Shown here: one piece after another, positions 27,276 to 64,000 of the stretch | Numbering within the stretch: the stretch's first letter is position 1 | Layout of the letters: every line of letters begins with the position of its first letter | Assembly (NCBI GenBank): GCA_026391215.1 | Contig: JAPLDX010000106.1 | Location: 23,441 to 87,440 of the forward strand | Direction: 5' to 3' | Length of the DNA: 64,000 nt | DNA from: Bacteroidia bacterium | GTDB lineage: Bacteria; Bacteroidota; Bacteroidia; Bacteroidales; VadinHA17 | Notes under the pieces: generated by a model | Seen by the model: only the letters and a program-made list of their open reading frames with translations | The model's database searches: none | Told to the model about the DNA's origin: nothing | Program-made: the position numbers and the translations under genes

Positions 27276-27915
27276 TTTTGATCTGTTCAGGACATTAAAG
27301 TTCCTTCCGGGTATAATTCTTGGGCTCACCATTCATGAGTTCAGCCATGCTTTCATTGCAAACAGGTGCGGTGATTCAACATCAAAGGACCAGGGCAGGG
27401 TAACACTTAATCCTTTTAAACACATTGATCCACTTGGATTTATAATGCTCCTGGTGGCTGGTTTCGGCTGGGCAAAACCGGTTGAATTTGATGAAAAGAA
27501 CCTGAGAAATCCAAAAACTGATGTACTTAAAATAGCGATAGCAGGTCCGGCTTCAAATGCATTGCTGGCAATGCTGCTTTCAGTAATCTTTGTTATTTTC
27601 AAAAACCTTGAAACGACTGATTTTTACTATGGAAAGTTCCTGATCACCGAACTGTTCGTATATGCGATATATATAAACTGGGGACTTTTCATCTTCAATC
27701 TTATACCTATTCCCCCGCTTGATGGCTCTCATCTCCTGTTAAGTTATTTAAAGAAATTCCCTTCTTTATATAATGCTCTTTATAAATATGGAACACTGGT
27801 ATTATTTGGACTCATTATTATATCAGCAATCTCGAAAGTAAACCTTCTGCCGATATGGCCGGCGATCGAGTTTCTAGGAGAAGGATTTCTTTCAGTTTTA
27901 GGATATAATTTGTAA
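27268..27915 (+). CDS. Site-2 protease (M50) family
   Basis: HEFSH, AGPASN, NLIPIPPLDG. Confidence 0.93.
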   Translation: MDNFDLFRTLKFLPGIILGLTIHEFSHAFIANRCGDSTSKDQGRVTLNPFKHIDPLGFIMLLVAGFGWAKPVEFDEKNLRNPKTDVLKIAIAGPASNALLAMLLSVIFVIFKNLETTDFYYGKFLITELFVYAIYINWGLFIFNLIPIPPLDGSHLLLSYLKKFPSLYNALYKYGTLVLFGLIIISAISKVNLLPIWPAIEFLGEGFLSVLGYNL

Positions 27916-39161: not shown

Positions 39162-40163
39162 TTATTTCTGCAGTACTCTAATCAGTTCATATATTGAATT
39201 GAAACTTTCTGTTTTGTCATCACTGGTGAGCAGCCATTTCTGATCAGTATCGTCAGTAATATGAATATAAGGATTGGTAATTGACGAAGACAACTGGTAC
39301 CCCTCTCTTATTAAAGCTCTTTCGGTCCATTTTCTTATTAAACCTTCACCCCTGACAAATATACTTCCCCTTGATTCTCTGAGAAATGAAAAATTGCCAT
39401 CGCCGGAACTGAATTGCACAATTGATGATTCGAACAAATGCTCAAAAGCGCCGCTGAGCATAAGATCTTCGGGAGCTCCTTCAATAAGGTTATTTTCCAG
39501 AATCAGCCATATTTTGTCAGCCTGGTTTACGGCTATATTGAAATCGTGAGTCGAGAATATTATTGTCTTGCCATCCCTTGTCAGCTCCCGCATCAGGCTG
39601 ATGATCTCATATTTACTGGCAATATCAAGAAACGCTGTAGGCTCATCCATTATCATCAGCTCAGCATCCTGGGCGAGAACCCTTGCTATCATCGCTTTCT
39701 GTCGTTCTCCGTCAGAAAGCTCAGAAATGTTCCTCGCTCTCAGGCTAGTCAATCCGGCTCTGGCAATAGCGTTTTCAATTGCCAGCCTTCCTGAATTATC
39801 TATAGTACCAAGCCAGTTTGTATGAGGAAAGCGCCCTAGAGCGACCAAATCGGAAACTCTCATGTTATTTACTTTAATAACTTCAGTGGATATATATCCG
39901 ATTTTCCTTGCCAGCACTATTCTTGAATATTCAGAGATATTTTTACCGTTCAGGATCACTTCTCCTCCAAGTGATGGCTGTAATCCTGCAATAGTCCTCA
40001 GCAGCGTGCTTTTCCCGATTCCGTTCCTGCCAATTACCGCAATGAGCTCACTACCGTTTGATGATGTGGATAATGGCGGTAATAATTCAGCTGAGTGCTT
40101 CCCTTTTGCATAACCAATACTCAGATTGTCAAGAATTAATATTTTGGTCTCGTTTTTCTCCAT
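39162..40163 (-). CDS. btuD: Cobalamin/iron-chelate ABC transporter ATPase
   Basis: GRNGIGKST, LSDGERQK, MDEPT; cobalamin-riboswitch operon. Confidence 0.85.
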   Translation of the reverse strand: MEKNETKILILDNLSIGYAKGKHSAELLPPLSTSSNGSELIAVIGRNGIGKSTLLRTIAGLQPSLGGEVILNGKNISEYSRIVLARKIGYISTEVIKVNNMRVSDLVALGRFPHTNWLGTIDNSGRLAIENAIARAGLTSLRARNISELSDGERQKAMIARVLAQDAELMIMDEPTAFLDIASKYEIISLMRELTRDGKTIIFSTHDFNIAVNQADKIWLILENNLIEGAPEDLMLSGAFEHLFESSIVQFSSGDGNFSFLRESRGSIFVRGEGLIRKWTERALIREGYQLSSSITNPYIHITDDTDQKWLLTSDDKTESFNSIYELIRVLQK

Positions 40164-41230
40164 TAGAATGAACCAGTATCTCTTTTATTTCTGAGTATAA
40201 TCCATAGAACCACCGGAATTCCTATTAGCGATGTTACCGAATTTACTGGAAGGATATTTACAGATCCTGGCAGTTGCGATATAATATCACTGATGAGCAT
40301 AACAACCCCTCCTGCAATGATAGTTCCCGGTACGAGGATCCTGTGATCCGATGTCCTGAACAGATTCCTGGTGATATGAGGAACCGCAATTCCTATGAAT
40401 CCGATTGGGCCGCAAAAGGCTGTTACGCTTCCGGCAAGTATGCTTGTACAGGTAAAGATCACTATTCTTGAAAGACGCAAATTCAGACCTATACTGACTG
40501 CATAATTTTCACCCAGCAACAAGGCGTTCAGCATTTTAACTGAAGCCAGGCTTAATATCATTCCTGCTGCCACTGTCAATAATAACACTTGCAACTGTCC
40601 TGCTGAAAGGTTTCCAAGACTTCCCATAGTCCAAATCACGTATGCCTTGAGCATCGTTTCGTTGCTGAAATACTGCATGATGCTAACGATTGCCGATATA
40701 CCGCTGGCCAGCATGATCCCAATGATCAGGATGGTCATTATATCCCTTATTTTTGAAGAAAGGAACATTATAAGCATCATCACAGCTCCTGCCCCTAACC
40801 ATGCTGAGACAACCAGCACCCAGTTGCCAAGACGCGGGAAGCTTCCAGGAACAAATTGTGCAGAGAAGCCAAGGATGACAAGAGCAACTCCCAGACTTGC
40901 CCCGGAGCTCACTCCCAGGACATATGGACCTGCCATCGGGTTCCTGAACAGGGTTTGCATCTGCAGTCCGCTTAAAGAAAGGGCAATGCCTGCTGCCAGG
41001 GCAGTTAAGGCTTTTGGCAATCTGAACTTAAAAATTATTGTTTCTATTTCGGAATCTGTTCGTTCAAAAAATGCTCTGAAAATATCTGCAGGCCTGATGC
41101 TTACAGATCCGAGCACGATGTCAAGTATGAAAAAGAAGATAAGCAGAATGAATAAGACTAAGAAGATGAGGCTTTTATTCCTTCTCAATCTTATTTCTTC
41201 AGGAACCGTTGCTAACACTTCAGATTTCAA
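40163..41230 (-). CDS. btuC: Cobalamin ABC permease (FecCD family)
   Basis: RLPKA, QTLFRNPMAGPYVLGVSSGA, GPIGFIGIAVPH. Confidence 0.87.
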   Translation of the reverse strand: MKSEVLATVPEEIRLRRNKSLIFLVLFILLIFFFILDIVLGSVSIRPADIFRAFFERTDSEIETIIFKFRLPKALTALAAGIALSLSGLQMQTLFRNPMAGPYVLGVSSGASLGVALVILGFSAQFVPGSFPRLGNWVLVVSAWLGAGAVMMLIMFLSSKIRDIMTILIIGIMLASGISAIVSIMQYFSNETMLKAYVIWTMGSLGNLSAGQLQVLLLTVAAGMILSLASVKMLNALLLGENYAVSIGLNLRLSRIVIFTCTSILAGSVTAFCGPIGFIGIAVPHITRNLFRTSDHRILVPGTIIAGGVVMLISDIISQLPGSVNILPVNSVTSLIGIPVVLWIILRNKRDTGSF

Positions 41231-41241
41231 ATACTCTGATT

Positions 41242-42423
41242 TTATTCAATTTTACGGTAATAGATAAGCCCTGTGTCCGGGAATAGTTCCGGATGCAGTA
41301 TTGCTGCAATATCCTTAAGTATCAGGTGAGGATTAATGATTCCGCTTTCCCAGTAATCATTGCCTCCTGATGGTGAGATCCTTTTATTATTATTATATAT
41401 GTTACCATCCCTGTAACAGGGTATAGATTCCAGCCTTAAATCAAGCGAAGATATTTCTTTCTTTGAGCTTACACTGCCTATATTAAGCCAGTAATCAGCT
41501 TTAAGCGCTCTTAAGAAAACATCTTCAATACTGTAAGGCATCGATACTGATGATTCTGTATTGTCCCATAGATAATTACCTCCTGCATCTTCAATGAACT
41601 TTCCTGCATAGGAGTTGCCAGGAGAAATAAACCATGTATCCCGGAAAGGGAGCCCCAGAAGCACCTCCGGCCTCTCTTTACTGTTCTGACTGACATAAGC
41701 TTTTGTACGGTTATACGATTCAGATACGGAGTTAAATATTGAATCCGCCATTTTTTCTTTGCAAAATAGAGCACCGAACAGCTTTATCCATTCAGCTTTT
41801 CCCAGCGGATCTGTTTCAAGATAGTCAGCATTGAACATAACCTTAATACCCAGCTCCTTAATTTTACCTGTATAACCAGCCGATTCACTGCCAATCCCGT
41901 AAATCATAATCAGGTCTGGAGATAGGCTTATAATCAATTCATTATTCATCCCGGACTCATATCCTACATCATATATCAGGCCTTCCTTTATTCTTTGAGA
42001 TATTCTTGTATCATATATTAAATCTGTCCCGGAAACACCAGCAATAGCCTCTTCTTCGCCCAGGGCAGCCACCATGGCAAGGTGAGTTGTTGACATGCAG
42101 ATTATCTTCTTCAGAGGAACATAAACAACGGAAGACACATCCTTTATCACCAATTTTTTTTCATCTCTGTTAATGAGGTAATAAATCTGCTTTATTTTAT
42201 TGGCTCCCTGCCACGGATCAGTTATAGTAAGAATTGTACAGGTGTCAGTTTTTTCAAGTGAGAATCGTTGCGCTCGTGTGACTACGGCCCCTGGGCCCGG
42301 TAAATCAGAATTCGTCCTGGTACCATCACCTGACGTACATGAGGCAGCTATGGCTGCGATGACAAAAAGCATCCGGCAAAATTCAGATAAATGGCGACAG
42401 GTTATTTCTGGAACAATCATCAT
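41242..42423 (-). CDS. btuF: Cobalamin ABC substrate-binding protein
   Basis: STTH, DYLETDPLGKAEWIK, NDYWESG, ILHPEL; ATGA overlap with the btuG stop. Confidence 0.85.
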   Translation of the reverse strand: MMIVPEITCRHLSEFCRMLFVIAAIAASCTSGDGTRTNSDLPGPGAVVTRAQRFSLEKTDTCTILTITDPWQGANKIKQIYYLINRDEKKLVIKDVSSVVYVPLKKIICMSTTHLAMVAALGEEEAIAGVSGTDLIYDTRISQRIKEGLIYDVGYESGMNNELIISLSPDLIMIYGIGSESAGYTGKIKELGIKVMFNADYLETDPLGKAEWIKLFGALFCKEKMADSIFNSVSESYNRTKAYVSQNSKERPEVLLGLPFRDTWFISPGNSYAGKFIEDAGGNYLWDNTESSVSMPYSIEDVFLRALKADYWLNIGSVSSKKEISSLDLRLESIPCYRDGNIYNNNKRISPSGGNDYWESGIINPHLILKDIAAILHPELFPDTGLIYYRKIE

Positions 42424-43484
42424 TCTGTATTTGAAGGGGATTGAACTTTGAAGCACATTGAACCCGGAATGATACCTGCCTTATATCCTGCAACAGAATC
42501 ACCTTTATTACTATACCTGATTACAAATCCATTCTGCTGATAATCAACAGCATCAGTGACAAAGATATCTCCATTAACCGGATTGATACCCAGCTTATAA
42601 AACATATGGCCTTTTTCCGTGATGAAAGATACTTCCGGTACTCCGGCCGCGTCAATGTCCATCCGCTTCACACCTTTTTCCAGAAAGAATAATGTATCTC
42701 CGTCCCCATTAATACTCAGGCATGATGGAGAATCAAGTTTGGAAGGAAAAACCAGCTTCTTCGTTATTTCATGTGTTTGTGTGTTTATTCCTATCAGCTC
42801 GGCATAATTCTCTCTCATCCATCCTCCGTTGCAAAGTACCCACAGAATATATTTTTTGTCTATTGCCATGCTTTCAGGTTCTTTCCCGACTTCAACGGAA
42901 TCAATCATTTTATCCAGGTCTGTGTTGACAACTACCACCTCATTGCCACCGTTCCAGTTTGAAATGAACGCTTTCTTGCCGGTCAGTACAATAGATTCAG
43001 AAGTCCTGCGAATATTAACATAACCTGAAATTGTGTTATTCTTCAGATTAATAATTGTAAGAGAATCTGAATAAAGACTTGTAATATAAGCCTTACTGTT
43101 ATCGATAACAACTACATTTCGTGGTGACTTGAGTCCTGTTATTGTTGCTTGAGATTTCAGGGAATTCCTCTTTACTACCTCTATTTTCCCTGAATTATTA
43201 ACAACAATATATGCGTAATCGCCATTAATTGTCATTGAATTAGGGACATCTCCAAGCGGTCTGGCGTTCATTTTTTGAAAAATGTCATTGAATATTATGG
43301 ATGAATCATACGAGAAATACGATATGGAACCGTTTCCCCACGTATAGTTGCCTTCATTTATAATAAAGACTCCATTACCAGCAAGGAAAGACTCTTCCGG
43401 ATCCAGAGTGCCAGGATCTTCAGGTTTCGTACATGAACATGCAATCAGTACAGGCAGAATTAAGAAAAATAATCGTTTCATCAA
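42420..43484 (-). CDS. btuG: BtuG-like surface lipoprotein (beta-propeller, cobalamin capture)
   Basis: Lipobox; FIINEGNY, LGDVPNSM, VVNNSGKI, SPR, DAVDYQQNG, GIIPG; directly after btuB. Confidence 0.85.
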   Translation of the reverse strand: MMKRLFFLILPVLIACSCTKPEDPGTLDPEESFLAGNGVFIINEGNYTWGNGSISYFSYDSSIIFNDIFQKMNARPLGDVPNSMTINGDYAYIVVNNSGKIEVVKRNSLKSQATITGLKSPRNVVVIDNSKAYITSLYSDSLTIINLKNNTISGYVNIRRTSESIVLTGKKAFISNWNGGNEVVVVNTDLDKMIDSVEVGKEPESMAIDKKYILWVLCNGGWMRENYAELIGINTQTHEITKKLVFPSKLDSPSCLSINGDGDTLFFLEKGVKRMDIDAAGVPEVSFITEKGHMFYKLGINPVNGDIFVTDAVDYQQNGFVIRYSNKGDSVAGYKAGIIPGSMCFKVQSPSNTE

Positions 43485-45430
43485 TTGGACTCGTTAATGA
43501 ACTTATATAAAAGTGAAATATGATATGACCTTCCCGGTTGAGGATAATGAGCTATCGCCTGATAGCTTAAATTAAATACATTTTCAATCCGGAAATTTAC
43601 ATCAAACGAATGCTTCTTATACGGTATTTTAATCCCGGCAATGAAATTACTTACAGTATACCCCGGGAGATGCCGCGAATTATCTACAACTATATATCTA
43701 CGCCCTGTGAAAATCGTAGTCCAGACAGAATAAATGTTCTTGTACCTGGTAGATAATGATCCATTAGCCTGGTTCTCAGGAATATATATCAGCTGGTTCA
43801 TTATCTTTTCTTCAGTGCCGGCTTCTGCAGAAACTGACCTTGTAAAAGAATATCCTGCATTCAGATTAATTGAAAGCTCATTAAGCGAATACGCAGCTGA
43901 AAATGAAGACTCAAATCCTGTTGAATTGACCCTGCTCAGATTATCAGCAACCCAGTATGTATATTCACCAGGATGCCATTGTATCATGTCCCTTATAAGG
44001 TTTCTGAAGAAGCCCAGCTCAGAGCTTATTGAGATCGCCGGAGATAGTCTCTGGTTCATTTTATAGCCCAGATCGTATAGAAACGCATATTCGTTCTTAA
44101 GCTGCTCATTGCCACCGGGAAACCAGTAGCGGTCATTCATGGAAGGTACTCGGGATGTACGTGAAAATCCGGATCTAAGGAAATGATCCTCATCCGCAAA
44201 CAATCTGAATTCTGCACCTGCAGAAAAATCAGGGATAAGTAACACTGTATTATCCAGAGTTTCCCTTATCATAATGGTTGATCCGAAACGATTCCTGGAT
44301 TTTTTATCAGCAATAACAGTAATGGATGCTGTGTTTCTTGAAACATTGTTTTCGTAATTATTTGATTGAATGACATTTAGCTCATTATTTATGAAGATTC
44401 TCAGTTTAGTACTATTTAATATCCTTGTTTCAATACCGCCCTTAAGAGTGAATGAATTGGAAACATTTTTTGATTCAATTGATGCAAGAGGGTTGGAATA
44501 ATCAAGCCTGTCATGCATCCATGCTCCGGTAACGAAATAATCAGTTTTTCCTCTTTCAGATTTAAAGCTGAATATGCTTCTTATTGATTCATCAACCTGT
44601 TCCTCACCTTGAGTTCCTGATTGTATCAGCATTGATCCGGGAAGATTTCTGTCGGTTGACTGGTACCATATCCGGGCAGAAAAATCATTATCCTGCTTCC
44701 TCAGATAAAACTCCTGCAAGAAATCTTTCCGCGACAACTGGCTGTTCTCTCTTTTTTCCAGGACAGGTTCTGAGCTGATTTCAGTATTCAGATAGGGAAA
44801 ATCATTTTCGGTATAATTCACATGAGCTTTTGTAACTGACTGGAAATTGTCATTTCCTGTTTTTACACCTGCAAGCAGAACATACCTGCTAAAGCTTCCA
44901 ACGTCCGGATTGACCATAACACTAGTCCTGTTGCTCCAGTCAGGATTGTTTTCAAGGCTTATTATTCCGCCGATACCCCCGTTTCCGGTTTCCATCGAGG
45001 CCCCTCCCAGACTTATCCGGACGTCATCAATCAATCCTGATGTTATCAGCGAGAAATCGGTTTGTCCCAGCATCGGATTATTAATATTGATCCCATTCCA
45101 TGAGACCTGAGTATGTGAAGCACCTGTGCCGCGTAGAGAAGAAGTCGAGGAACCGCCTGATCCATAACTTTTTATAAAAACCTGGGAACTTAAAGCAAGC
45201 AGTTCGGCCAGTGAAATATTAGTGTAATTTTTAAGAAGTGTTGTATCAATGCTGATTTTCCTGAAACCGGGAAGATCTGAGCTTATCTGCTTTCTGCTGA
45301 TTATTACTTCCTTTATTCTTATTGTATCCTCACTTAATGAATTTTGTCCCTGCAGAGGAATATAGATAAAGAACACACCACAAAGCAGTATATGTCTGAG
45401 TATTGTTCCGGAAGCTTTCCTTTTTATCAT
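43481..45430 (-). CDS. btuB: TonB-dependent cobalamin receptor
   Basis: Plug SLRGTGASHTQVSWNG, ENVFN and PQPGRSY C-terminus; first gene after the cobalamin riboswitch. Confidence 0.85.
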   Translation of the reverse strand: MIKRKASGTILRHILLCGVFFIYIPLQGQNSLSEDTIRIKEVIISRKQISSDLPGFRKISIDTTLLKNYTNISLAELLALSSQVFIKSYGSGGSSTSSLRGTGASHTQVSWNGININNPMLGQTDFSLITSGLIDDVRISLGGASMETGNGGIGGIISLENNPDWSNRTSVMVNPDVGSFSRYVLLAGVKTGNDNFQSVTKAHVNYTENDFPYLNTEISSEPVLEKRENSQLSRKDFLQEFYLRKQDNDFSARIWYQSTDRNLPGSMLIQSGTQGEEQVDESIRSIFSFKSERGKTDYFVTGAWMHDRLDYSNPLASIESKNVSNSFTLKGGIETRILNSTKLRIFINNELNVIQSNNYENNVSRNTASITVIADKKSRNRFGSTIMIRETLDNTVLLIPDFSAGAEFRLFADEDHFLRSGFSRTSRVPSMNDRYWFPGGNEQLKNEYAFLYDLGYKMNQRLSPAISISSELGFFRNLIRDMIQWHPGEYTYWVADNLSRVNSTGFESSFSAAYSLNELSINLNAGYSFTRSVSAEAGTEEKIMNQLIYIPENQANGSLSTRYKNIYSVWTTIFTGRRYIVVDNSRHLPGYTVSNFIAGIKIPYKKHSFDVNFRIENVFNLSYQAIAHYPQPGRSYHISLLYKFINESN

Positions 45431-55174: not shown

Positions 55175-56467
55175 TCAGCTCCGTCTGCTTTTTGATGCCA
55201 GGTAACGGAATGGATTGATGATTTTCTGGATTAATCTCAGATCTTCCGTAATTATTTCAGCGGTGCCCTGCATATTCTGGGTAAAATCGAGCTTCCTGCC
55301 ATACAGGGTAGTGAGTCCCTTCGGTAAAGTGACTTCAATTACATATGAATCGCCGGCAGGGACAAGCGATTTTGATTTAACGATGCCTCTCACCATACCA
55401 TATTCAAGATATGGAAATCCGCTCAGTTTTATATTGACGGCCTGATCAATCTTCACTTTCCCTGACCTTTGCATTTTCAGATTTATTCTGCCAACAAAGT
55501 CTCCTGCATTTTTCGGCACAACGGAAATTACCGGTTGATTAATGCTTATTGATTGATTTTCGCTCCAGTAATCGGTAAATGCCACTATTCCTTCTACCGG
55601 AGATATAAGAAGATAACTGTTCTCCCATATTTGCATTTGTGCATTCAGGTTAAGGAATGCTTCGTTGAGGGCAGATACAAGCTTTTCCTTCTCCTCTTGC
55701 CTGTTAATGCGATAATCCTGCAGGAGCTGATTTTTTTCAGCCAGTTCAATCACTTTCGCTGAATTGTCAAGCCTGACTTCCTGCAATTCCAGCCTGATCC
55801 TGATAAATGCCTGCCTGGAATTTTCAAGATCACTTTCCGAATACACCCTGCCGGAATGAAGTATTGAATCTCTTTCATATTTTCTTTTTTCAATGATCAG
55901 GTTCTCTGAAACAAGCTGTTCCTTTATATTGATCCTTTCAATGTAATCTTGTATTCCTGCTATCTCATCAGTAATTGAATTGATTTTACTTCCATAAAAA
56001 TCATTATTCATATAAGTATTATAATCAGAAAGGACTTTCATAAATGATGCATAATATTCCTGGATCTCACCAAGTTTATATAAACCGGGAAATGACTCAG
56101 ATAATAATATCTCAGGCCTCTGTACTGTATCAATAATCGTTTTCAGCAGTTCAATTTCGCGTATAGAAGCAGCAGTCTCCATAACTGCCAGAAGCTGTCC
56201 CGGTGAAACATTTTCCCCGTTTTTTACGTATAATTTATTTATATGCCCTGTTATTTTACTGACAAGCGTTACAGGAGGATTTATCGTTGTTATCTCCACA
56301 GGAGCAGGAATAACATCAGGATACTTTATAAGCCAGGACAAGAGTATTATTAATGCAAAAACCGAGAATATCACTGTTGTCCCCCACCTTATAATCTTTC
56401 GCGGCGGATTGGAAATAATCTCCTTCACAGGATCAGAATATAATATCTCAGGTTTCTTGTCTTTCAT
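55175..56467 (-). CDS. HlyD-family membrane fusion protein
   Basis: N-terminal TM after PPRKIIRWG, long coiled coil, GQLLA, FPYLEYG, GTAEIITED. Confidence 0.9.
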   Translation of the reverse strand: MKDKKPEILYSDPVKEIISNPPRKIIRWGTTVIFSVFALIILLSWLIKYPDVIPAPVEITTINPPVTLVSKITGHINKLYVKNGENVSPGQLLAVMETAASIREIELLKTIIDTVQRPEILLSESFPGLYKLGEIQEYYASFMKVLSDYNTYMNNDFYGSKINSITDEIAGIQDYIERINIKEQLVSENLIIEKRKYERDSILHSGRVYSESDLENSRQAFIRIRLELQEVRLDNSAKVIELAEKNQLLQDYRINRQEEKEKLVSALNEAFLNLNAQMQIWENSYLLISPVEGIVAFTDYWSENQSISINQPVISVVPKNAGDFVGRINLKMQRSGKVKIDQAVNIKLSGFPYLEYGMVRGIVKSKSLVPAGDSYVIEVTLPKGLTTLYGRKLDFTQNMQGTAEIITEDLRLIQKIINPFRYLASKSRRS

Positions 56468-56476
56468 TAACGCAAA

Positions 56477-58663
56477 CTATTTCCCCAGCTCAAGCTGGTT
56501 TTTCACAAGATTGAAATACGGTCCGTTGTCCTCTATAAGTGATCCATGTGTTCCTGTTTCCACAATTCTGCCGTTGTCCATGACAACAATTTTATCAGCG
56601 TTTCTGACGGTACTGAGTCTGTGAGCAACAATAATCACTGTTTTACCCTTGAAGAAACTTGTAAGATTTTCTACAATAGCCTTTTCATTGTTGGCATCCA
56701 GCGAGTTTGTTGCTTCATCAAAAATTATAATATCAGGATTTTTGTAGACAACCCGTGCTATCAGCAATCTTTGCATTTGTCCCTCACTCAGGCCATGGCC
56801 ATTGGCTCCTACTTTTGTATTATACCCGATAGGCAGTGATTCTATAAATCCTTTAATATTTGCTGTCTCTGCTGCCCTGACCATTTTCTCTTCATCAATT
56901 TCCGCTTCGCCGGGAGCAATATTTGCTGCTATCGTATCCGGGAAGAGAAATCCATCCTGCATGACAGCGCCTGTCTTTTCACGCCATACTTTAAGGCTGA
57001 GGTTTGCAAGATGCGTATCTCCTATCAATATCTCTCCGGCTACAGGCTGGTAAAATCCGAGGAGCAGTTTGAGCAGTGTGGTTTTGCCGCTTCCGCTTGT
57101 GCCGACAATTGCTGTAGTCCTGTTTTCCTCGATATAAAGATCGGCATCTTTTATAGCATATGGTGAATGAGGTCCTTCGTATTGAAATGAAACGTTATTA
57201 ATAAAAATATCCTTTCTTTCAGGAAGCTTTCTTACCTTATATTCGGGATCAATCTCCTCGTCCTGCATTTCGTGAACTTCTGAGAGGCGGTCAAGACTCA
57301 TCTTTGCATCCTGCGACATTCTGAAAAAGGCAATTATCTGGCTTACCGGCACATTCATCTGGCCTATGATAAACTGTACTGCAAGCATCATACCCAGGGT
57401 CATGCTTCCCTTGAGTACAGATGTTGCTGCAACGATGGTGATCAACAGATTGGTTACTTCGTTTATGAATGTTGCACCTGCAGACTGATACTGGATTATT
57501 CCAAGACCTTTGATCTTAAGCCCGAAAAGTGTTGCCTGCAGCTTTTCCCAATCCCATCTCTTGCTTGTTTCACTTTGTGTGAGCTTGATCTCCTGCATTC
57601 CATTCACAATATTTATCAGCTTATTTCCTGACAGTGACATCTGCTTAAAACGCTGCTGGTCAAGCCTGGCTCGTGACTTCATGAATAGTGATACCCACAA
57701 GATATACAGGGCAGATCCAATAAGGAACACAGTCAGTATCTTAACATTGAAAATTGCGAGAACAATACCAAAAATTATAAGATTGAAGAAAGAGAAAAGG
57801 ATAGAAAGACTAGCCGAAGTAAGGAATTCTTCTATCCTGTTATTGTCTTCTATTCTCTGAAGAATATCACCTGTAAGTTTTGTATCGAAGAAAGCAATTG
57901 GCAAGGACATCAGTTTCTGAAGGAAACCTGAAATTATTGCTACATTAATCCTGGTCCCTATATGCAGGAGGAGCCATCCCCTGATGAATTCAACCGACAT
58001 TCTTCCGATCACTAGAGCAAGTTGTGCAAACAGGATCAGGTAAATGAAGCCTATGTCGTTATTATTCAGTCCAATATCTATTATTGACTTTGTAAGGAAA
58101 GGTATAATCAACTGGATCAGGCTTCCGAGAAGCAAACCAAGGATCAGTTGGAAAAGGTACTTGTCATACAGACGGAAATATTTGAAGAGGAACCTGAATC
58201 CATTTGATTTCTCATGTTCGTTCTCTTTTTCGAAAAGTGCAGGTGTGGGTTCAATAATAAGTACCAGTCCTGCCGGCTTTCCTTCGGACATAGTTGAAGC
58301 CCAGTTGCTGGTAAACTCATCGCGGTCATATTTAACAAGTCCGATAGCCGGATCAGCAGCCCATACTTTGTCATTCTTAATCTTATAAACCACAATGAAA
58401 TGACGTTGCCGCCAATGAACTATGCATGGCAGAGGGACACGCTCTTCCATCATTTCAAAAGGGATCTTAACGCCAATTGTTTTGAATCCCAGAGAATCAG
58501 CAGCCTCTGAAAGCCCAAGAAATGATACTCCCTCTCTGGTAATAAAACATTTTCTCCGGATGGTTTCCAGAGAAAAGTTTTTTTTGTAAAACGCTGCAAC
58601 CATTTTCAGGCATGCCGGCCCGCAATCCATTGCATCAGGTTGTTTTACAAAGGGAAACGACAT
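56477..58663 (-). CDS. Peptidase-containing ABC transporter (C39 PCAT; double-glycine peptide exporter)
   Basis: C39 domain QPDAMDCGPACL / HWRQRHFIVV / DP; TM domain; Walker A GTSGSGKTT, Walker B FDEAT, AHRLST. Confidence 0.93.
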   Translation of the reverse strand: MSFPFVKQPDAMDCGPACLKMVAAFYKKNFSLETIRRKCFITREGVSFLGLSEAADSLGFKTIGVKIPFEMMEERVPLPCIVHWRQRHFIVVYKIKNDKVWAADPAIGLVKYDRDEFTSNWASTMSEGKPAGLVLIIEPTPALFEKENEHEKSNGFRFLFKYFRLYDKYLFQLILGLLLGSLIQLIIPFLTKSIIDIGLNNNDIGFIYLILFAQLALVIGRMSVEFIRGWLLLHIGTRINVAIISGFLQKLMSLPIAFFDTKLTGDILQRIEDNNRIEEFLTSASLSILFSFFNLIIFGIVLAIFNVKILTVFLIGSALYILWVSLFMKSRARLDQQRFKQMSLSGNKLINIVNGMQEIKLTQSETSKRWDWEKLQATLFGLKIKGLGIIQYQSAGATFINEVTNLLITIVAATSVLKGSMTLGMMLAVQFIIGQMNVPVSQIIAFFRMSQDAKMSLDRLSEVHEMQDEEIDPEYKVRKLPERKDIFINNVSFQYEGPHSPYAIKDADLYIEENRTTAIVGTSGSGKTTLLKLLLGFYQPVAGEILIGDTHLANLSLKVWREKTGAVMQDGFLFPDTIAANIAPGEAEIDEEKMVRAAETANIKGFIESLPIGYNTKVGANGHGLSEGQMQRLLIARVVYKNPDIIIFDEATNSLDANNEKAIVENLTSFFKGKTVIIVAHRLSTVRNADKIVVMDNGRIVETGTHGSLIEDNGPYFNLVKNQLELGK

Positions 58664-58785
58664 CTCTCTTTCTGAAATAGATTCTTATACCTGTAAAGAT
58701 ATTTATATTTTGAATAGAAAATAACGGTAACCGCCATAAATTCAAAACTCGCACCTATTTCAAATATTATCCTGTGTGGAAATAC

Positions 58786-58793
58786 TATATTTG
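58786..58793 (+). promoter_or_regulatory. Bacteroidota housekeeping -7 element for the ECF sigma gene
   Basis: TATATTTG matches TAnnTTTG, about 25 nt before the TTG at 58819. Confidence 0.5.
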
Positions 58794-58818
58794 CCAATTA
58801 TATTCTATCAGACCGGGG

Positions 58819-59385
58819 TTGTTTAATAAAATATCAGATAAAAGCATAATTGAGGGTATCAGGAAACAGGACGATAAGACCCTGAATTGGCTGTATGATA
58901 ATTATTTTCAAACAGTTAAGAATTATGTTATAAAAAACAGCGGGACTGAAGAGGATGTTTCTGATGTTTTTCAGGATTCAATAATAATATTGTATAATCA
59001 GATTGCCGGAGAGAGCCTGAATCTAACGACTGATCTTAAAGGTTATTTCTTTGGTATAGCCCGCAATATATGGAGTTCCCAGCTACGGAAGAAACGAAGA
59101 ACGACAGGACTTGATATAGACCTTCCTGATGAACTGCCTCATGAAGAAACAGATGAACTGCTGTTTGAAAGGATAGTGAGCAGGGCTTTCCAGAAGCTTA
59201 AGCCTGACAACCAGACTATATTGACGTTATACTCTGATGGTCATTCCTATGAAGAGATTGCTGTCAGAATGAATCTGAAGAATGAAATTTATGCTCGCAG
59301 GAAGAAGTATCTCAGCAAAGAGGCGTTGATAGAAATTATCAAGGAAGATCCGGAATATCAGGAATATTTGAAATACCGGAAATAA
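58819..59385 (+). CDS. ECF (sigma-70 group 4) RNA polymerase sigma factor
   Basis: Region 2 LYDNYFQTVKNYV...DVSDVFQDSII, YFFGIARNIW; region 4 SYEEIAVRM. TTG start at 58819 is favoured by the promoter position. Confidence 0.9.
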   Translation: MFNKISDKSIIEGIRKQDDKTLNWLYDNYFQTVKNYVIKNSGTEEDVSDVFQDSIIILYNQIAGESLNLTTDLKGYFFGIARNIWSSQLRKKRRTTGLDIDLPDELPHEETDELLFERIVSRAFQKLKPDNQTILTLYSDGHSYEEIAVRMNLKNEIYARRKKYLSKEALIEIIKEDPEYQEYLKYRK

Positions 59386-62300
59386 ACGGCAAGCATAAGA
59401 ATAACAATTATAATGATTGCCGCTGGCAAGAATAATCCGGAAGGATATACTGGCGAATTATCTCCGTAGACTACCACCGAGGACCAGAAATATGGATGGG
59501 ACTTCAGCTGACTTGCTTTTTTCAGATATGTCGATCTTGCCTTTCTTAAAGCCATGCTTTTTGATTTTCCCTTATGCAGGTTATCATAGAACATCTTAAT
59601 AATATCTGTTCCTGACTGGTCCTCTATCTCCCACATGGACATAGTCACAGACTGACTGCCTGAATAAAGAAATCCCCTGGCAAGGCTAAGTATCCCTTCA
59701 CCCGAAAAAAGGAAACCGGAACCTGTATTGCATGAGCTGAGTACCACCATTTTTGCTTTCAGAGGTATTCCATAGACTTCATAAGTATTAAGAAGACCAT
59801 CCTCAGGCATATCGTTGATTTGTGAGAATATCATGGCAGAATTCATAGGATTTTGATCGTTAAGGTAGGTATGCATTGCCATATGAATAATATCATATTT
59901 CCCAGCTTCAGCCTTGAAGACAGATTCCCGCGCATCGTCATTAATATACAAAGTACCATGAGATATTTCAGATATATATTCTGCTTCCATGCGGGCATAT
60001 GGCAGGTCATACAGTATTTCGCTTTCCGCTTTTCTCCTCACAAATAGTGAATCAATATAGACCTCTTTTGTGTATGCCGGGGCAAATGCTATAAGATCCC
60101 GTGTTTTTCCATACTCTCTGGCAACAGTCTCTTTCATGAATGATGCAGAATAGGTATATGAGATATTGAATTCATTCATCATGTAAGGCAATTTACGATA
60201 GACAATGCCTTCTCCCTGATAGATGGAAGATAAAAATGCCTCAAATGGAAGGTAAGAAAGAATATTATCCGGCGAAATCACCAAATCATCAGAAATAAAG
60301 TACTTACGTACTGGTTCAACTAGGATTTTATAAAGGTCATGTCCTATTTGCTGATAGGAAGTGAATTTTCCCCTTGCATTTTCCGACAGGTTTGAATTTG
60401 AAAGGAGAGTTCTGAATTCCTTTAGTTTCCATATGAACGTCGAGTCTATATCAGTTTTCAGAATCTGCTGGTACTTCCGGTTTACAATGAAAATATAGAT
60501 GAGGGAATCCGATACTACATAATTGAGATAATTGACATTGCGGCCTATGATCTTCGGAATGTCTTTCATAACAAGAGCAGAGGTACTGTATTTAATAGCG
60601 TAATATCCCGGGTAGTCTCTTTCATAGGTCGCAACCAGTGAATCTCTTATTTGTACTGCTATGAGAAGGCTCTTATTCCATTCTGAGGTTTTGTTAATGT
60701 CAGGGAATTCCATTTCATTCTCTTTTGATATTTCGGCATTATAATAACCTATTTCATTTTGAAGTGATTTTTCCAGCTCAGCAACCGTTGGTGGTATATG
60801 AAAGTCAATTGCGTTCAATTCGCGGGTCGCGGCAAGCAATACTGCTGCTTTGCTCTTTTCAACATACTCAAAAGTCTTTTCCAGGAACCAGTTTTTGCCA
60901 GTATTACGGAAACATAATTCAAAATCGCGTATAGCAAAAAGATATGAGTCTCTGTAGTTGTCTCCAAGCACCATCCTGCTCTCCTCTTCGCTTATATTGA
61001 TCCTTATTCTGTCAATCAGTGAAATTATAAGCTCAGAAGTATTTGCAGCTGATTCCAGTACTTCCTGGTCAGCTGATCCTGAATATATTTTCCATAATAA
61101 TTCATATTTGAAACGAAGTATCCGTAAGGTCCTGTCGTCAGCAGTTAATCTTGAGATGTCAGGATTTTCATATTTCCCATACAATTTCCCCTGATCAATA
61201 TCGGAAAACAGCAATTCCTGTATTTTTTCCATTGCTTTAAGATTATCACCATTTCCCGAAAGGCTTTTTGCATAGCCGACAATTACAGGGTCTCTTAACA
61301 CAACCACTTCTTGATGCTGCTCTATGTATTCAATACATGGCATATAATACCTGATGGAATTCTGATAATCATGCTTATATATCCGTAAATAATTTGCATA
61401 ATTTATTAAAACTTCAATATAAAATCTTGAATCAGAACCATATACATTCTTTGATCTTTGAAGTAAAATGAGCAGCAATTCCTCTCCTTTGTCGATCATC
61501 CCTGAATTTCCAAGCTCATCTGCAAAATTATTTATCAGGTTAAACGCCATGTTTGAATTGCTGGAAAAAGCAAGTTCAAGACCTTTGTCATAATATTCCT
61601 TTTCCTTACTGGTCAGCCCCAGAGTTCCATAGGTGGATGCCAGGTTATTGATCAGGTTTATATAAGCCTCATCCTTAGTCAGATTATTTTTATAATAGAT
61701 TGATTCGGCTTCTTCCAGGTATATTCTTGCTTTTGTATGGTCGGCCAGCCTGGCATAACCGACTCCCATACTGTTATATAACCTGCATAGTTCTGATCCC
61801 TGCAAGGCATTTTTGTTCACACCTAATATTTCCAGAGCTTTAAAGGAATAACTTTTGAAGTTTTCATAATCATTATTCTCAAGGGCTGCACCTACAAGTG
61901 ATGAATATGCTTCTGCGATCTGAGGACTATAATATCCGTACAATTTTGTACCTATTGTTATGTATTGCAGCATATAGTAACCTGATCTTGTAAAATCACC
62001 CAACAAATTATATGCTACCCCGAGGTCATAAATTCCATTGGCATAATGATCATCCGTAATTCCAAACTCCTCCTTTATATCTACACTTAGATTGAGCCAG
62101 GGAAGTGCATAACCGTACTTATTTGCAAGCAGACTGCAGACACCAATATAGTAATATATTTCAGCAAGTGTCACGCTATCCGGGGGATTAATGGTCAGTG
62201 ATCTTTTAAGACTATCGGATAAGGATATTAATCCATTGATATCTTGTGCATCATTTAGAGAATTGACAAATGCATTTAATTTTTCGAGGGAGGCTGGAAG

Positions 62301-62456
62301 CTTTTGAGGTTCTATTGATAAGCTTTTCTTGTTGTTTGAATCCTCTAATGAAGAACCTGTTTGCGGAGAGCCAGGTACCATCGACGATATGAAGATGAAC
62401 CCTGAAAAGAGCGCTATTCTTGTGTGGTATTTGAAAATATGTATCCTCCTTATCAT
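59358..62456 (-). CDS. TPR + CHAT (caspase HetF-associated) domain protease with N-terminal signal and C-terminal TM anchor
   Basis: TPRs (YYYIGVC, IYDLGVAY, LYNSMGVGY); CHAT motifs LVISPDNILSYLPFEA, IIHMAMH, VVLSSCNTG, EGILSLARGF, MSMWEIED, HPYFWS; hydrophobic C-terminus. Confidence 0.9.
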   Translation of the reverse strand: MIRRIHIFKYHTRIALFSGFIFISSMVPGSPQTGSSLEDSNNKKSLSIEPQKLPASLEKLNAFVNSLNDAQDINGLISLSDSLKRSLTINPPDSVTLAEIYYYIGVCSLLANKYGYALPWLNLSVDIKEEFGITDDHYANGIYDLGVAYNLLGDFTRSGYYMLQYITIGTKLYGYYSPQIAEAYSSLVGAALENNDYENFKSYSFKALEILGVNKNALQGSELCRLYNSMGVGYARLADHTKARIYLEEAESIYYKNNLTKDEAYINLINNLASTYGTLGLTSKEKEYYDKGLELAFSSNSNMAFNLINNFADELGNSGMIDKGEELLLILLQRSKNVYGSDSRFYIEVLINYANYLRIYKHDYQNSIRYYMPCIEYIEQHQEVVVLRDPVIVGYAKSLSGNGDNLKAMEKIQELLFSDIDQGKLYGKYENPDISRLTADDRTLRILRFKYELLWKIYSGSADQEVLESAANTSELIISLIDRIRINISEEESRMVLGDNYRDSYLFAIRDFELCFRNTGKNWFLEKTFEYVEKSKAAVLLAATRELNAIDFHIPPTVAELEKSLQNEIGYYNAEISKENEMEFPDINKTSEWNKSLLIAVQIRDSLVATYERDYPGYYAIKYSTSALVMKDIPKIIGRNVNYLNYVVSDSLIYIFIVNRKYQQILKTDIDSTFIWKLKEFRTLLSNSNLSENARGKFTSYQQIGHDLYKILVEPVRKYFISDDLVISPDNILSYLPFEAFLSSIYQGEGIVYRKLPYMMNEFNISYTYSASFMKETVAREYGKTRDLIAFAPAYTKEVYIDSLFVRRKAESEILYDLPYARMEAEYISEISHGTLYINDDARESVFKAEAGKYDIIHMAMHTYLNDQNPMNSAMIFSQINDMPEDGLLNTYEVYGIPLKAKMVVLSSCNTGSGFLFSGEGILSLARGFLYSGSQSVTMSMWEIEDQSGTDIIKMFYDNLHKGKSKSMALRKARSTYLKKASQLKSHPYFWSSVVVYGDNSPVYPSGLFLPAAIIIIVILMLAVYFRYFKYS

Positions 62457-62509
62457 ATGGAAAGAATCAGCATATTATACAGGCGATTCAATAAACATGT
62501 ATTTCTTAT

Positions 62510-62517
62510 CAAATCTA
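62510..62517 (-). promoter_or_regulatory. Housekeeping -7 element for the CHAT gene
   Basis: caaatcta on + reads TAGATTTG on -, about 54 nt upstream of the CHAT start. Confidence 0.45.
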
Positions 62518-62674
62518 ATATTTTTTATTAAGGTTATTCATTTTATAAGTAATTGATTATCTGTGCATATAGAAATAATAATGCATTTTTTTGATTTTTT
62601 TGTGTCACAAATCAGTTATCAATGACATGTAGTATTGAATTACCCTGAATTAAATAATAATTAAAACGAAAATT

Positions 62675-62806
62675 ATGGAAGCCCTGGATCTTAAAAAAAC
62701 AAAAGACATTTTTGCTGAGTTTGCATTATCAAGTGAAGGAATGATTAATGTACGCGGTGGTGATGGTATTCCTCCTACTCCTCCAAATCCCCCGGTAAGA
62801 ATCTGA
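62675..62806 (+). CDS. Double-glycine-leader precursor peptide (43 aa; Pro-rich core DGIPPTPPNPPVRI); not in the ORF track
   Basis: MEALDLKKTKDIFAEFALSSEGMINVRGG|DGIPPTPPNPPVRI*. Leader LSxxxMxxVxGG; A-rich Bacteroidota-type initiation region; C39 PCAT 4 kb away. Confidence 0.8.
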   Translation: MEALDLKKTKDIFAEFALSSEGMINVRGGDGIPPTPPNPPVRI

Positions 62807-62998
62807 AAGATCAAGATAAAATTTCTGTGAAGGAAACAGGAAAATAATTACATCTGCCCAGTGGCTGATGGTTTTGTGGTGCGGGCTAATATAGAGCCCG
62901 ATCTGGAAAGGTACAATAAAAGTTGTGTGAGCGAATACTCTTATGTATTTGAAATACAATTGATTAATAGATATTTAAAATATAAACAACAATAATTT

Positions 62999-63745
62999 AT
63001 GAAAACAATTGACTTTTCATATTTCATCGAAAGGTATAATGCCGGTGAGATGAATGAAGCTGAAACAACATGGTTTCTTAAGGAGCTTGATAATAATGAA
63101 AAGCTTCGGAAAGAAGTTGATTTAAGGAAAAAAACCGACATGGTTCTTAAAACTCATGATGTCATTCAGTTACGAAATAAACTTACGGAAATTGAGAGAA
63201 TAAGGGCAGCAGAAAAACCTGTCAAAACCCCGGTAAAAAGTATGTCATTGAGATACGCTGCAATAATTGCCGGCTTAATGATTGTTGGCGGCATAACTCT
63301 TTATAACGGCAGGAGTATGACCAACGACGAAATACTCGACCGGTTCTATAAATCGTATGAGGTAACTTCACCTTCAAGGTCTCAGCAAGCCATTTTAAAT
63401 TCTGATTATTCCACGGCGATTGAGTATTACAATATCCATGATTACAGGAATGCTGCCCTTTATTTCAGTAAGGTTGTGGATTCTGATCCCAGATATATGG
63501 AATCAACGATGCTCAATGGCGTTTCAAACTTTGAAGTCAGGAATTATCCTGATGCGGAGAGTTCATTTATCAAAGTGATTGACAATAATGACAACCTGTT
63601 CCTGGAGGATTCTCAGTGGTACCTGGCTTTATGCTATCTAAGGACCAATGAACAGGAAAAAGCTTTTAATCAGTTAAATGCAATTAATAAATCTGAAAGT
63701 ATCTACAAAAGGGATGCGAAGAAAATCATGAAAAAAATGAAATAA
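62999..63745 (+). CDS. Putative anti-sigma factor: N-terminal helical domain, single TM, C-terminal TPR
   Basis: IERYNAGEMNEAETTWFLKELDNNEKLRKEV (anti-sigma-like N-terminus); TM YAAIIAGLMIVGGITLY; TPR ...SQWYLALCYL. Confidence 0.72.
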   Translation: MKTIDFSYFIERYNAGEMNEAETTWFLKELDNNEKLRKEVDLRKKTDMVLKTHDVIQLRNKLTEIERIRAAEKPVKTPVKSMSLRYAAIIAGLMIVGGITLYNGRSMTNDEILDRFYKSYEVTSPSRSQQAILNSDYSTAIEYYNIHDYRNAALYFSKVVDSDPRYMESTMLNGVSNFEVRNYPDAESSFIKVIDNNDNLFLEDSQWYLALCYLRTNEQEKAFNQLNAINKSESIYKRDAKKIMKKMK

Positions 63746-63761
63746 CTTTTTTTTGCAGTTC

Positions 63762-64000
63762 ATGCGGAACCTGAAATTAAATACTGATCAAAGCGCTGAA
63801 GAGTGTCCCGGTTGCCAGAATATTATTCCTGAGAATAGTATGATTAACTGTCCAACAATATTACAAGGCATGTCACATGAAGTGAGAACTCACATGAATG
63901 CGATTGTTGCACTCTCATTTCTCATGAGCAGGAACGAATGCAATAAAAGAGACAGGGAAGAATTCAGCGATCAGATATTAGCTTCCTGTGAACAGCTTAT
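63762..64000 (+). CDS. HisKA-domain (histidine kinase-like) protein, runs off the right edge; not in the ORF track
   Basis: MRNLKLNTDQSAEECPGCQNIIPENSMINCPTILQGMSHEVRTHMNAIVALSFLM...EEFSDQILASCEQL; H-box MSHEVRT. Confidence 0.7.
   Translation, partial: MRNLKLNTDQSAEECPGCQNIIPENSMINCPTILQGMSHEVRTHMNAIVALSFLMSRNECNKRDREEFSDQILASCEQL

Follow-up and report, generated by a model that had tools for sequence, protein, structure and literature searches.

The window analysed here is a 64,000-nt stretch of DNA from Bacteroidia bacterium (assembly GCA_026391215.1, contig JAPLDX010000106.1). It contains a seven-gene locus (55175-63745, plus one adjoining gene) that probably forms a self-reinforcing signalling switch of an undescribed kind. 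The locus combines a sigma factor of the extracytoplasmic function (ECF) type, a membrane-spanning anti-sigma-like protein and a TPR-CHAT protease with a double-glycine (GG) peptide precursor, a peptidase-containing ATP-binding cassette (ABC) transporter (PCAT), a HlyD-type adaptor and a histidine kinase. We propose, tentatively and at slightly less than an even chance, that the module is built on a split DdvA-like switch, with a peptide-fed positive loop acting on the ECF sigma. The original prediction for this DNA had read the locus as a quorum-sensing-like circuit in which an exported peptide activates the protease to cleave the anti-sigma factor, an interpretation that our analysis partly supports. 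Open reading frames (ORFs) together with Pfam and NCBIfam matches confirmed the six genes it had listed, which lie on alternating strands at 55175-63745, and added a kinase gene from 63753 that it had missed. The 3.39-Mb genome carries one copy only of every gene in this set of seven.

At the heart of the proposed switch is the TPR-CHAT protein (59358..62456, minus strand; 1032 aa), which matches the Pfam CHAT family (PF12770) with an E value of 4.3e-52. Its structural model (predicted local distance difference test score, pLDDT, 83.3; predicted template modelling score, pTM, 0.78) comprises an N-terminal hydrophobic helix (residues 2-24), a disordered stretch (25-55), a TPR solenoid (57-416), a helical scaffold (441-637), the CHAT domain (about 642-1000) and a transmembrane helix (1009-1031), and predicts a periplasmic body anchored to the inner membrane. 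The catalytic dyad, H862 (59871-59873) and C909 (59730-59732), is invariant in two sets of full-length orthologues (30/30 and 24/24), and variation is far greater in the N-terminal 450 residues than in the protease domain. Foldseek placed Csx29 first among the structures resembling the model (8eey_B; E 7.7e-15, template modelling scores 0.42/0.56), with separase next and DdvA at ranks 17 and 19 (8rw5 and 8rot; E about 1e-12). A sequence search of the PDB with the same protein gave no matches.

The presumed target of the protease is encoded at 62999..63745 (plus strand). To judge from its topology and from the pairing of its gene with sigma genes in relatives, this 248-aa protein would be an anti-sigma factor. 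Four cytoplasmic helices (7-71) are followed by a membrane helix (84-103), a disordered linker (117-134) and a periplasmic domain of three TPRs (135-247). The model (pLDDT 80.7) drops below 50 at residues 126-131, and the membrane helix is moderately hydrophobic, with no 19-residue window at the Kyte-Doolittle cut-off of 1.8. This modelled arrangement of N-terminal cytoplasmic helices, one membrane helix and an extracytoplasmic domain fits class I topology. No anti-sigma domain was matched in Pfam or NCBIfam, and the family alignment (A1) contains no conserved His/Cys zinc motif. In a relative (G246; L079:9580-11079) the frame is open for 519 residues, and the cytoplasmic domain at the N-terminus is matched three times in a row ahead of the membrane and TPR part, which looks like a triplication of that domain.

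Several lines of evidence connect the two proteins. The codons for Arg127 and Ser128 (63377..63382, plus strand) lie in the juxtamembrane linker and mark a candidate site-1 cleavage site. Arg127 is kept in 116/120 family and 43/45 order-level sequences, amid linker columns that are otherwise variable, and clan CD proteases favour Arg or Lys at P1; together these suggest that the residue at P1 would be Arg. The original prediction had suggested modelling the complex, and a prediction with CHAT 152-1005 and anti-sigma 104-248 scored 0.74, the best of three controls reaching 0.00. This score was reached by 58/80 solved complexes and 2/110 mismatched pairs, a calibration that is only roughly valid here because our own alignments were used. 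Three runs agreed in at least 95% of contacts, with a partner pLDDT of at least 85. In the confident interface, the residues on either side of the catalytic His and Cys of CHAT (860-865 and 907-910) meet anti-sigma residues 121 and 123-132, so that the model places the linker with Arg127 in the His862/Cys909 site. Further contacts join the TPR A-B loops of the anti-sigma protein (164-168, 197-204 and 233-235) to CHAT 688-695, 748-755 and 980-987, and conservation within the anti-sigma family peaks in the block 197-204. The score is a measure of model confidence, and since a single DdvA chain holds both parts, a memory of that structure is possible; we know of no comparable complex of two separate chains. 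Because the genes for sigma, anti-sigma and CHAT co-occur phylum-wide (see below), Arg127 is near-invariant within a variable linker and the model supports docking of that linker, we consider it rather probable that CHAT cleaves the anti-sigma protein, as had been predicted.

The genes of the locus travel together. CHAT orthologues (38-57% identity) are present in 23/24 genomes of the same genus, and the gene order of the window is kept in 19/20 stretches of at most 20 kb, as far as the contigs reach; the twentieth, L050, comes from another family and contains none of the genes besides a CHAT homologue. In the family, full-length anti-sigma homologues were found in 125/151 genomes and 19/20 genera (E <= 1e-5). 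The cluster also holds together at 18 loci from 16 other genera, with its order altered in L053, L055, L057, L061, L063 and L064; in L055, for example, HlyD, PCAT, kinase, anti-sigma and peptide genes are followed by those for CHAT and sigma. PCAT orthologues are conserved at 55-86% identity. A CHAT homologue from another family (27% identity; L050) was considered as a further member of such a module and rejected, as its gene stands alone among housekeeping genes; TPR-CHAT proteins therefore do not all belong to such modules.

A species-wide scan, with one genome for each of 185,579 species, yielded 277 relatives by one pattern. The best 80 of these, which were examined, are all metagenome-assembled genomes (MAGs) of uncultured Bacteroidales, some labelled Rikenellaceae, from fens, lakes, sediments and digesters, and some of the loci duplicate genomes of the genus and family sets described above. 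CHAT and sigma genes are present at all 57 loci with at least 9 kb of upstream flank, PCAT and peptide genes at 56/57 each, and a HlyD gene adjoins that for PCAT at 37/57. A kinase gene follows the anti-sigma gene at 74 of the 78 loci with enough downstream flank. One genus, g29 (L060, L067 and 22 loci in the range L151-L188), keeps PCAT, sigma, CHAT, peptide, anti-sigma and kinase and has no HlyD beside PCAT. No match to the window HlyD was found in 5/5 g29 genomes in a search run without its own positive control; the same query finds orthologues at 35-67% identity in other genera.

These observations indicate that the module is almost certainly one functional unit. A chance neighbourhood is disfavoured because the unit recurs across the family in rearranged order and also in 12/40 order-level loci, which come from different families; the recurring co-location anticipated for this gene set is thus borne out.

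The smallest gene of the locus encodes the GG precursor (62675..62806, plus strand; 43 aa), with a leader (62675-62761) ending VRGG and a predicted core (62762-62803) of DGIPPTPPNPPVRI. A homologous GG-leader ORF lies 5' of the anti-sigma gene in 37/37 orthologous loci and in 71/72 further loci with enough flank, and none was found at two paralogous loci. Because of these homologues we regard the hidden ORF of the original prediction as a real gene, one that matches no Pfam or NCBIfam family at E <= 0.01. The leader (...LSSEGMINVRGG) has V at -4, M at -7 and L at -12, with a like pattern in all listed homologues. GG leaders typically run to about 15-30 residues, and their consensus has hydrophobic residues at these positions.

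The peptide gene lies 4 kb from that for PCAT (56477..58663, minus strand; 728 aa), which unites a C39 peptidase domain (Peptidase_C39, E 3e-35) with an ABC membrane domain (ABC_membrane) and an ATPase (ABC_tran), and the two genes co-occur in related loci. The C39 residues Q8, C14 (58622-58624), H88 (58400-58402) and D104 are kept in at least 75/77 orthologues. The HlyD-type adaptor (55175..56467, minus strand; 430 aa) is encoded 3' of the PCAT gene, matches HlyD_3 (E 1.7e-8) and TIGR01843 (E 9e-22), and has one N-terminal hydrophobic segment. On this sequence evidence, the peptide is very likely cleaved and exported by PCAT.

The predicted cores are diverse, with 75 distinct cores among 77 non-redundant loci. 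They are 13-30 aa long (median 17), carry a mean net charge of -1.8, contain 21% proline, and include cysteine in only 2 cases. In most, hydrophobic residues come after a PP[VI] centre. Cores of this kind, short, acidic and rich in proline, with hardly any cysteine, are unlike bacteriocins and membrane-active or cationic antimicrobial peptides. In some relatives the peptide genes are multiplied: L127 has five identical copies in tandem, L042:11824-12140 has two differing copies, and L088:4637-5558 has four near-identical longer genes. At L080:14600-14770, about 2 kb downstream of the module, there is a second, different GG-leader ORF with a cysteine-rich core.

Promoter-like sequences suggest how the genes may be wired together. 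The ECF sigma gene (58774..59385, plus strand; Sigma70_r2 and Sigma70_r4_2; TIGR02937 at 55.4 bits against a cut-off of 42.9) overlaps the CHAT gene convergently at its 3' end. Its ORF opens with GTG at 58774, 5' of a conserved TATATTTG box (58786..58793, plus strand; a -7 element of the form TAnnTTTG), so that the box and a conserved TTG at 58819 both lie inside the longer ORF. The TTG is the more likely start, giving a protein of 188 aa and leaving the box 5' of the coding region. The block GGAAAT..TATATTTG is kept in 19 genus loci, and the PCAT gene carries a similar box. We take TATATTTG to be the Bacteroidetes sigma-A -7 consensus, a housekeeping-type element.

A different motif precedes the peptide gene. 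In the window it reads GTGTCACAAA-N12-GACATGTA (62602..62631, plus strand), 44 nt before the peptide start codon, and is the proposed target of the ECF sigma. The genus form, TTTTT..TGTCACAAA-N12-GACATGTA, occurs in 19/19 genus loci, 60-110 nt before the peptide start codon. In its strict form the window motif has 2 matches in the 3.39-Mb genome, and of these only the one at 62602-62631 has the full -35-like element and the AAA tail. Among the other-genus loci, 9/18 have a window-type motif, all nine with a sigma at least 45% identical to that of the window, whereas loci with a sigma at 24-35% identity, or with none in view, have a second motif, roughly GGGTAACC-N15-GAATTAAGG; the motif type thus follows the sigma clade. 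No window-type motif was found 5' of 43 sigma genes from other families and orders.

In those other families, the sigma/anti-sigma operons carry the second motif, as GT[TA]ACCTTTT-N11-GGAATTAA (GTTACCTTTT-N11-GGAATTAA), just 5' of the sigma gene. A motif directly 5' of a sigma gene is the usual signature of an autoregulated ECF promoter. The strict expression for it gave 21 matches in the 656 kb of order-level loci against 0-2 in each of twenty block shuffles; 8 of these precede sigma genes, 4 peptide genes, 4 kinase genes and 5 others. The motif of the window and its clade would be a diverged version of this second motif; it sits at the same position, and L065 and L080 have intermediate forms. 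Because of this position and these intermediates we assign the window promoter to the sigma of the locus, and it is likely that the sigma drives the peptide operon. Sigma and exporter would then be made constitutively, and peptide, anti-sigma and kinase on demand.

The kinase gene (63753..64000, plus strand; 5' part, HisKA) would be the last of this operon. It starts 8 nt past the anti-sigma stop codon and is cut by the contig end; contig C120, read as its reverse complement, shares 71 nt with this end and continues the gene, for a full length of about 270-280 aa. In full-length orthologues, HisKA and HATPase_c are the only domains; some 30 residues precede them, and there is neither a sensor nor a membrane segment. 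Neither a ComCDE-type membrane kinase receptor nor a cognate response regulator was found in the locus.

The core of the module extends well beyond the family of the window. An anti-sigma profile matched 182/301 genomes and 132/208 genera of the order (E <= 1e-8) and 32/251 genomes of the phylum (E <= 1e-15); 40 order-level loci, several of them cut by contig ends, and 20 phylum-level loci were compared. The sigma gene stands directly 5' of the anti-sigma gene on the same strand in 32/40 and 19/20 of these, respectively, whereas CHAT and peptide genes separate the two in the window. A CHAT gene lies within the fetched stretch in 31/40 order-level and 14/20 phylum-level loci. This core of an ECF sigma, a membrane-spanning TPR anti-sigma protein and a membrane-anchored periplasmic TPR-CHAT protease looks like a split DdvA/DdvS.

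The peptide arm is far less widespread. A GG peptide, called by hidden Markov model in the order-level set, was found in 12/40 order-level and 1/20 phylum-level loci, and a PCAT in 6/40 and 0/20. The 12 peptide-bearing order-level loci belong to 12 different families, and in 11/11 of those that include CHAT the peptide gene is oriented divergently from the CHAT 5' end (L075 stops at a contig end). PCAT and HlyD genes are adjacent in 6 of these 12 loci, compared with 0 of the 28 in which no peptide was detected. A full-length PCAT orthologue (52-58% identity) is encoded elsewhere in 5/5 tested peptide-bearing genomes that lack an adjacent one, two of the five on the same contig within about 10-17 kb, and in 0/5 tested genomes from among the 28 peptide-less loci. 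Since the trio occurs without a detected peptide in most loci, the protease switch needs no such peptide in general, and the distribution of these genes indicates that the peptide is an add-on, either input or output, and not intrinsic to the switch.

Four peptide-less trios have a sigma-type motif before the gene for a protein of about 415 residues (L082:4808-6110, L089:4892-6208, L097:12869-14208 and L100:7243-8663), with a signal peptide, CarboxypepD_reg/SdrD_B-like domains and a type IX secretion system (T9SS) C-terminal sorting domain. The gene lies directly 5' of that for CHAT in 3/4 of these loci, L100 ending at a contig end. In L098:13849-15573 the motif precedes the peptide gene and recurs before a receiver-domain gene, which is followed by a gene for a LytTR DNA-binding protein; peptide pheromone circuits of Gram-positive bacteria use regulators of this type.

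These results suggest a model whereby proteolysis at the inner membrane couples an exported peptide to transcription. The ECF sigma, made from its housekeeping-type promoter, would be sequestered by the anti-sigma protein, whose cytoplasmic helices would hold it at the inner membrane. The inner-membrane TPR-CHAT protein would dock with its periplasmic body on the anti-sigma TPR domain, with the disordered linker in the His862/Cys909 site. Once activated, it would act as site-1 protease and cut after Arg127, and an RseP-type site-2 protease would complete the release of sigma. The freed sigma would transcribe a single operon from GTGTCACAAA-N12-GACATGTA, encoding the GG-leader peptide, new anti-sigma protein and the sensor-less kinase. 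PCAT would cut the leader after Gly29 and export the 14-residue acidic, proline-rich core, HlyD taking part where it is present. Acting on TPR surfaces in the periplasm, of which the CHAT solenoid is the more likely and the anti-sigma groove a possible one, the peptide would then promote cleavage. The peptide would thus close a positive loop that newly made anti-sigma damps, and the kinase would be an output arm to an unlinked response regulator. That the peptide is the activating ligand is a possibility we place close to, but below, an even chance. The genome encodes an RseP-like M50 protein of 445 residues (contig C111:11771-13030), a candidate site-2 protease, and the window a small Peptidase_M50 protein of 215 residues (27268-27915).

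The promoter footprints argue for a feedback loop; the quorum-sensing-like character claimed for the circuit is uncertain. The g29 module without HlyD, together with periplasmic candidate receptors, fits delivery of the peptide to the periplasm, and because of these two features the loop may be autocrine rather than quorum-like. Covariation of peptide cores with the CHAT TPRs, a further suggestion of the original prediction, proved non-discriminating. In partial Mantel tests controlled for PCAT distance (77 non-redundant loci of 84 complete), peptide-core distance correlated at 0.45-0.50 with the distance of every fast-evolving protein part, and at -0.04 with that of C39. With equal values for all parts, the test singles out no receptor, and the anti-sigma 3-TPR domain is an equally good candidate to the CHAT TPRs.

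Besides these Mantel values, a number of considerations weigh against the peptide-fed loop. The related genomes are non-independent samples, and the strict expression for the second motif was written after sites had been seen, so that its count was not blind. The window motif is unlike the motif before sigma genes elsewhere, and the window sigma gene itself has a housekeeping-type box. The N-terminus of the anti-sigma protein matched no solved anti-sigma domain in PDB sequence and profile searches, and Foldseek returned TPR proteins only. The complex model docks the anti-sigma linker in CHAT without any peptide present, and the trio is found without a detected peptide in 28/40 order-level and 19/20 phylum-level loci. 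PCAT with HlyD normally exports to the outside of the cell and the proposed receptor is periplasmic, which leaves re-entry of a 1.4-kDa peptide unexplained. Finally, the T9SS-sorted proteins of about 415 residues imply that secreted sigma products beside CHAT are a wider theme, which keeps alive an alternative in which the peptide is purely an output.

In this alternative, which we consider unlikely though more probable than the others, the trio senses some other envelope or external cue and the peptide targets other cells or the environment, with no feedback. It would account readily for the many peptide-less trios, for the same motif preceding the T9SS-sorted protein in four of them, and for a PCAT with HlyD, the usual route to the outside; the five identical tandem genes of L127 would suit mass production. 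The cores themselves do not fit so well, since short, acidic, proline-rich and almost cysteine-free peptides are unlike antimicrobial peptides, and the module has no conserved immunity-like gene. Moreover, the peptide shares its operon with the anti-sigma gene, which is the layout of a self-inducing pheromone, and the g29 modules, with no HlyD match in 5/5 genomes, fit periplasmic delivery.

The loop could also be right in outline with a different receptor, the anti-sigma 3-TPR domain in place of the CHAT solenoid, peptide binding in its groove altering how the linker is presented. In the family of the window, the peptide gene is directly 5' of the anti-sigma gene in one operon, and the nearest folds to the domain are small peptide-binding TPRs (the YbgF TPR, Hop TPR1 with an Hsc70 peptide and CHIP-TPR). 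In the complex model, contacts to CHAT run through the A-B loops and would leave the groove free, as judged from secondary structure. We nevertheless think this improbable. In L074, L088, L098, L107 and L110 the peptide gene sits at the CHAT 5' end, with anti-sigma and sigma genes beyond CHAT, and within the module variability is highest in the CHAT N-terminal TPR region (mean distance 0.71, compared with 0.56 for the anti-sigma periplasmic domain), as would suit a receptor that sets specificity.

We give still less credence to the peptide as a brake, that is, a securin-like pseudo-substrate or competitor on CHAT or its docking surface, in an operon that serves purely for shut-off. Its co-transcription with anti-sigma, a known type of negative element, is compatible with such a role, as is the basic residue near the C-terminus of many genus cores (PPVKI, PPVRI), and separase, a structural relative, is described as held by a pseudo-substrate (PMC11506125). 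Many cores, however, have no basic residue (endings PPVII, EPEI and IIEL), and an inhibitor has no evident use for a dedicated leader-cleaving exporter conserved at 55-86% identity.

That two unrelated modules, a bacteriocin exporter and an ECF/CHAT stress sensor, merely share descent at a stable site is scarcely credible: the fixed position beside DUF349, pyrG and yidC means that synteny within the genus by itself proves little, but the association outlasts rearrangement within the family, recurs in 12 different families of the order, extends to PCAT adjacency in 6/12 peptide-bearing loci against 0/28 others, and includes peptide genes that carry the sigma-type promoter motif.

The upstream neighbours of the locus encode DUF349, CTP synthase (pyrG) and YidC, a fixed site within the genus. 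No modifying enzyme for a ribosomally synthesised and post-translationally modified peptide (RiPP) was found among the neighbours or in 20 ORFs scanned at 25.6-49.1 kb (ORFs below 25.6 kb being outside the scan); on this ground we rejected a RiPP cluster. The original prediction had likewise seen neither such an enzyme nor an obvious immunity gene in the window, and no immunity-like gene is conserved in the module. A defence system was likewise rejected, since PADLOC assigned none of its families to CHAT, sigma, anti-sigma, HlyD or the kinase; for PCAT it gave generic ATPase matches only. No genes for CBASS (cyclic oligonucleotide-based antiphage signalling system) or CRISPR/Cas were found in the locus. 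Elsewhere in the window, at 39162-45430, lies an unrelated uptake cluster (TonB-dependent receptor plug, DUF5074, periplasmic binding protein, FecCD permease and ABC ATPase).

ECF sigma/anti-sigma pairs are a major bacterial signalling route, for most groups of which the trigger is unestablished. Taken more broadly, our results raise the possibility, which we hold at clearly less than an even chance, of a phylum-wide, so far uncharacterised Bacteroidota family in which a free-standing periplasmic TPR-CHAT protease serves as gated site-1 protease on a membrane-spanning TPR anti-sigma factor of an ECF sigma, and to which some Bacteroidales couple a sigma-induced linear peptide exported by PCAT. 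If this is true, the ECF repertoire of the Bacteroidota includes a widespread protease-gated class whose only studied relative, DdvA, is a fused protein from another phylum. If the loop operates as proposed, it would be the first ECF sigma circuit in a diderm to be autoinduced by a peptide, the receptor of which would be a caspase-like protease. Double-glycine pheromone logic would then reach diderm anaerobes and a receptor other than a kinase, and the engineering of Bacteroidales would gain a compact peptide-to-transcription switch. Directly testable predictions from the analysis concern the point of cleavage (Arg127), the surface used for docking (the conserved DNLF loop region) and a promoter; since all the organisms found are uncultured, such work would need heterologous systems.

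Neither the sigma/anti-sigma/CHAT trio of the Bacteroidota nor its peptide-coupled form was found in literature searches. The term 'CHAT' occurs 0 times in the main texts of an ECF reclassification (PMC7826278) and a study of ECF evolution (PMC7671368), the supplementary tables of which may list genomic context. The original prediction, which knew of no characterised system of this composition, had overlooked the closest relative, DdvA/DdvS of Myxococcus xanthus. As set out by Bernal-Bernal et al. 2024 (PMC11506125), this is an ECF sigma with a single-pass zinc anti-sigma factor bearing a periplasmic TPR-CHAT part. A signal-induced CHAT cut in a flexible linker beside the membrane helix, followed by RseP, is proposed there; outside the Myxococcota, DdvA-like proteins are reported there from one Comamonas species only. 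The resemblance lies in an ECF sigma under a single-pass anti-sigma and a periplasmic TPR-CHAT of the separase/craspase type, and the proposed linker cleavage is the very step modelled here in the CHAT active site. There are also differences. DdvA is fused, whereas here anti-sigma and TPR-CHAT are two genes, each product with its own membrane anchor, and CHAT gave no sequence-level match to DdvA. The anti-sigma protein here lacks the zinc motif and has its own small TPR domain, and the His-Cys dyad is intact and invariant. DdvA is tied there to CBASS/CRISPR defence islands, whereas the present locus has none and no PADLOC matches; the module adds a GG peptide, PCAT with or without HlyD, and a sensor-less kinase, and its host belongs to the Bacteroidota.

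The type III-E craspase offers a second parallel. In this system (Strecker et al. 2022, PMC10028731), the TPR-CHAT protein Csx29 cleaves Csx30, which holds an ECF-type sigma. Cleavage of a partner by a TPR-CHAT protein is in both cases thought to free a sigma, and Csx29 is the best fold match to our protease. Craspase is cytoplasmic and gated by RNA through Cas7-11, whereas the protease here is predicted to be periplasmic and membrane-anchored, with a membrane-spanning anti-sigma as its proposed substrate.

In mode of action, the nearest analogue of the proposed switch is DegS-RseA. In the DegS-RseA-RseP-sigmaE pathway of E. coli, a membrane-anchored periplasmic site-1 protease activated by peptide ends cuts a single-pass anti-sigma factor in its periplasmic part, and a site-2 protease then frees the ECF sigma. 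DegS is a serine protease with a PDZ domain that responds to the ends of misfolded outer-membrane proteins; here we have a clan CD cysteine protease with TPR sensors, and the candidate peptide has a gene dedicated to it and an exporter of its own, and is apparently under the control of the sigma. For the peptide arm, the nearest systems are ComC/ComAB/ComDE and the class II bacteriocin loci, in which a C39-ABC transporter cleaves and releases a GG peptide, the peptide gene is transcribed jointly with regulatory genes from a promoter activated by the circuit, and sensing is by a membrane histidine kinase with a LytTR regulator. ComC cores differ between species, as do the cores described here (75 distinct among 77 loci). 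Unlike ComCDE, the kinase of the present module has no sensor or membrane part, and the proposed route of sensing, set in a diderm cell envelope, has a protease, an anti-sigma factor and an ECF sigma as its elements.

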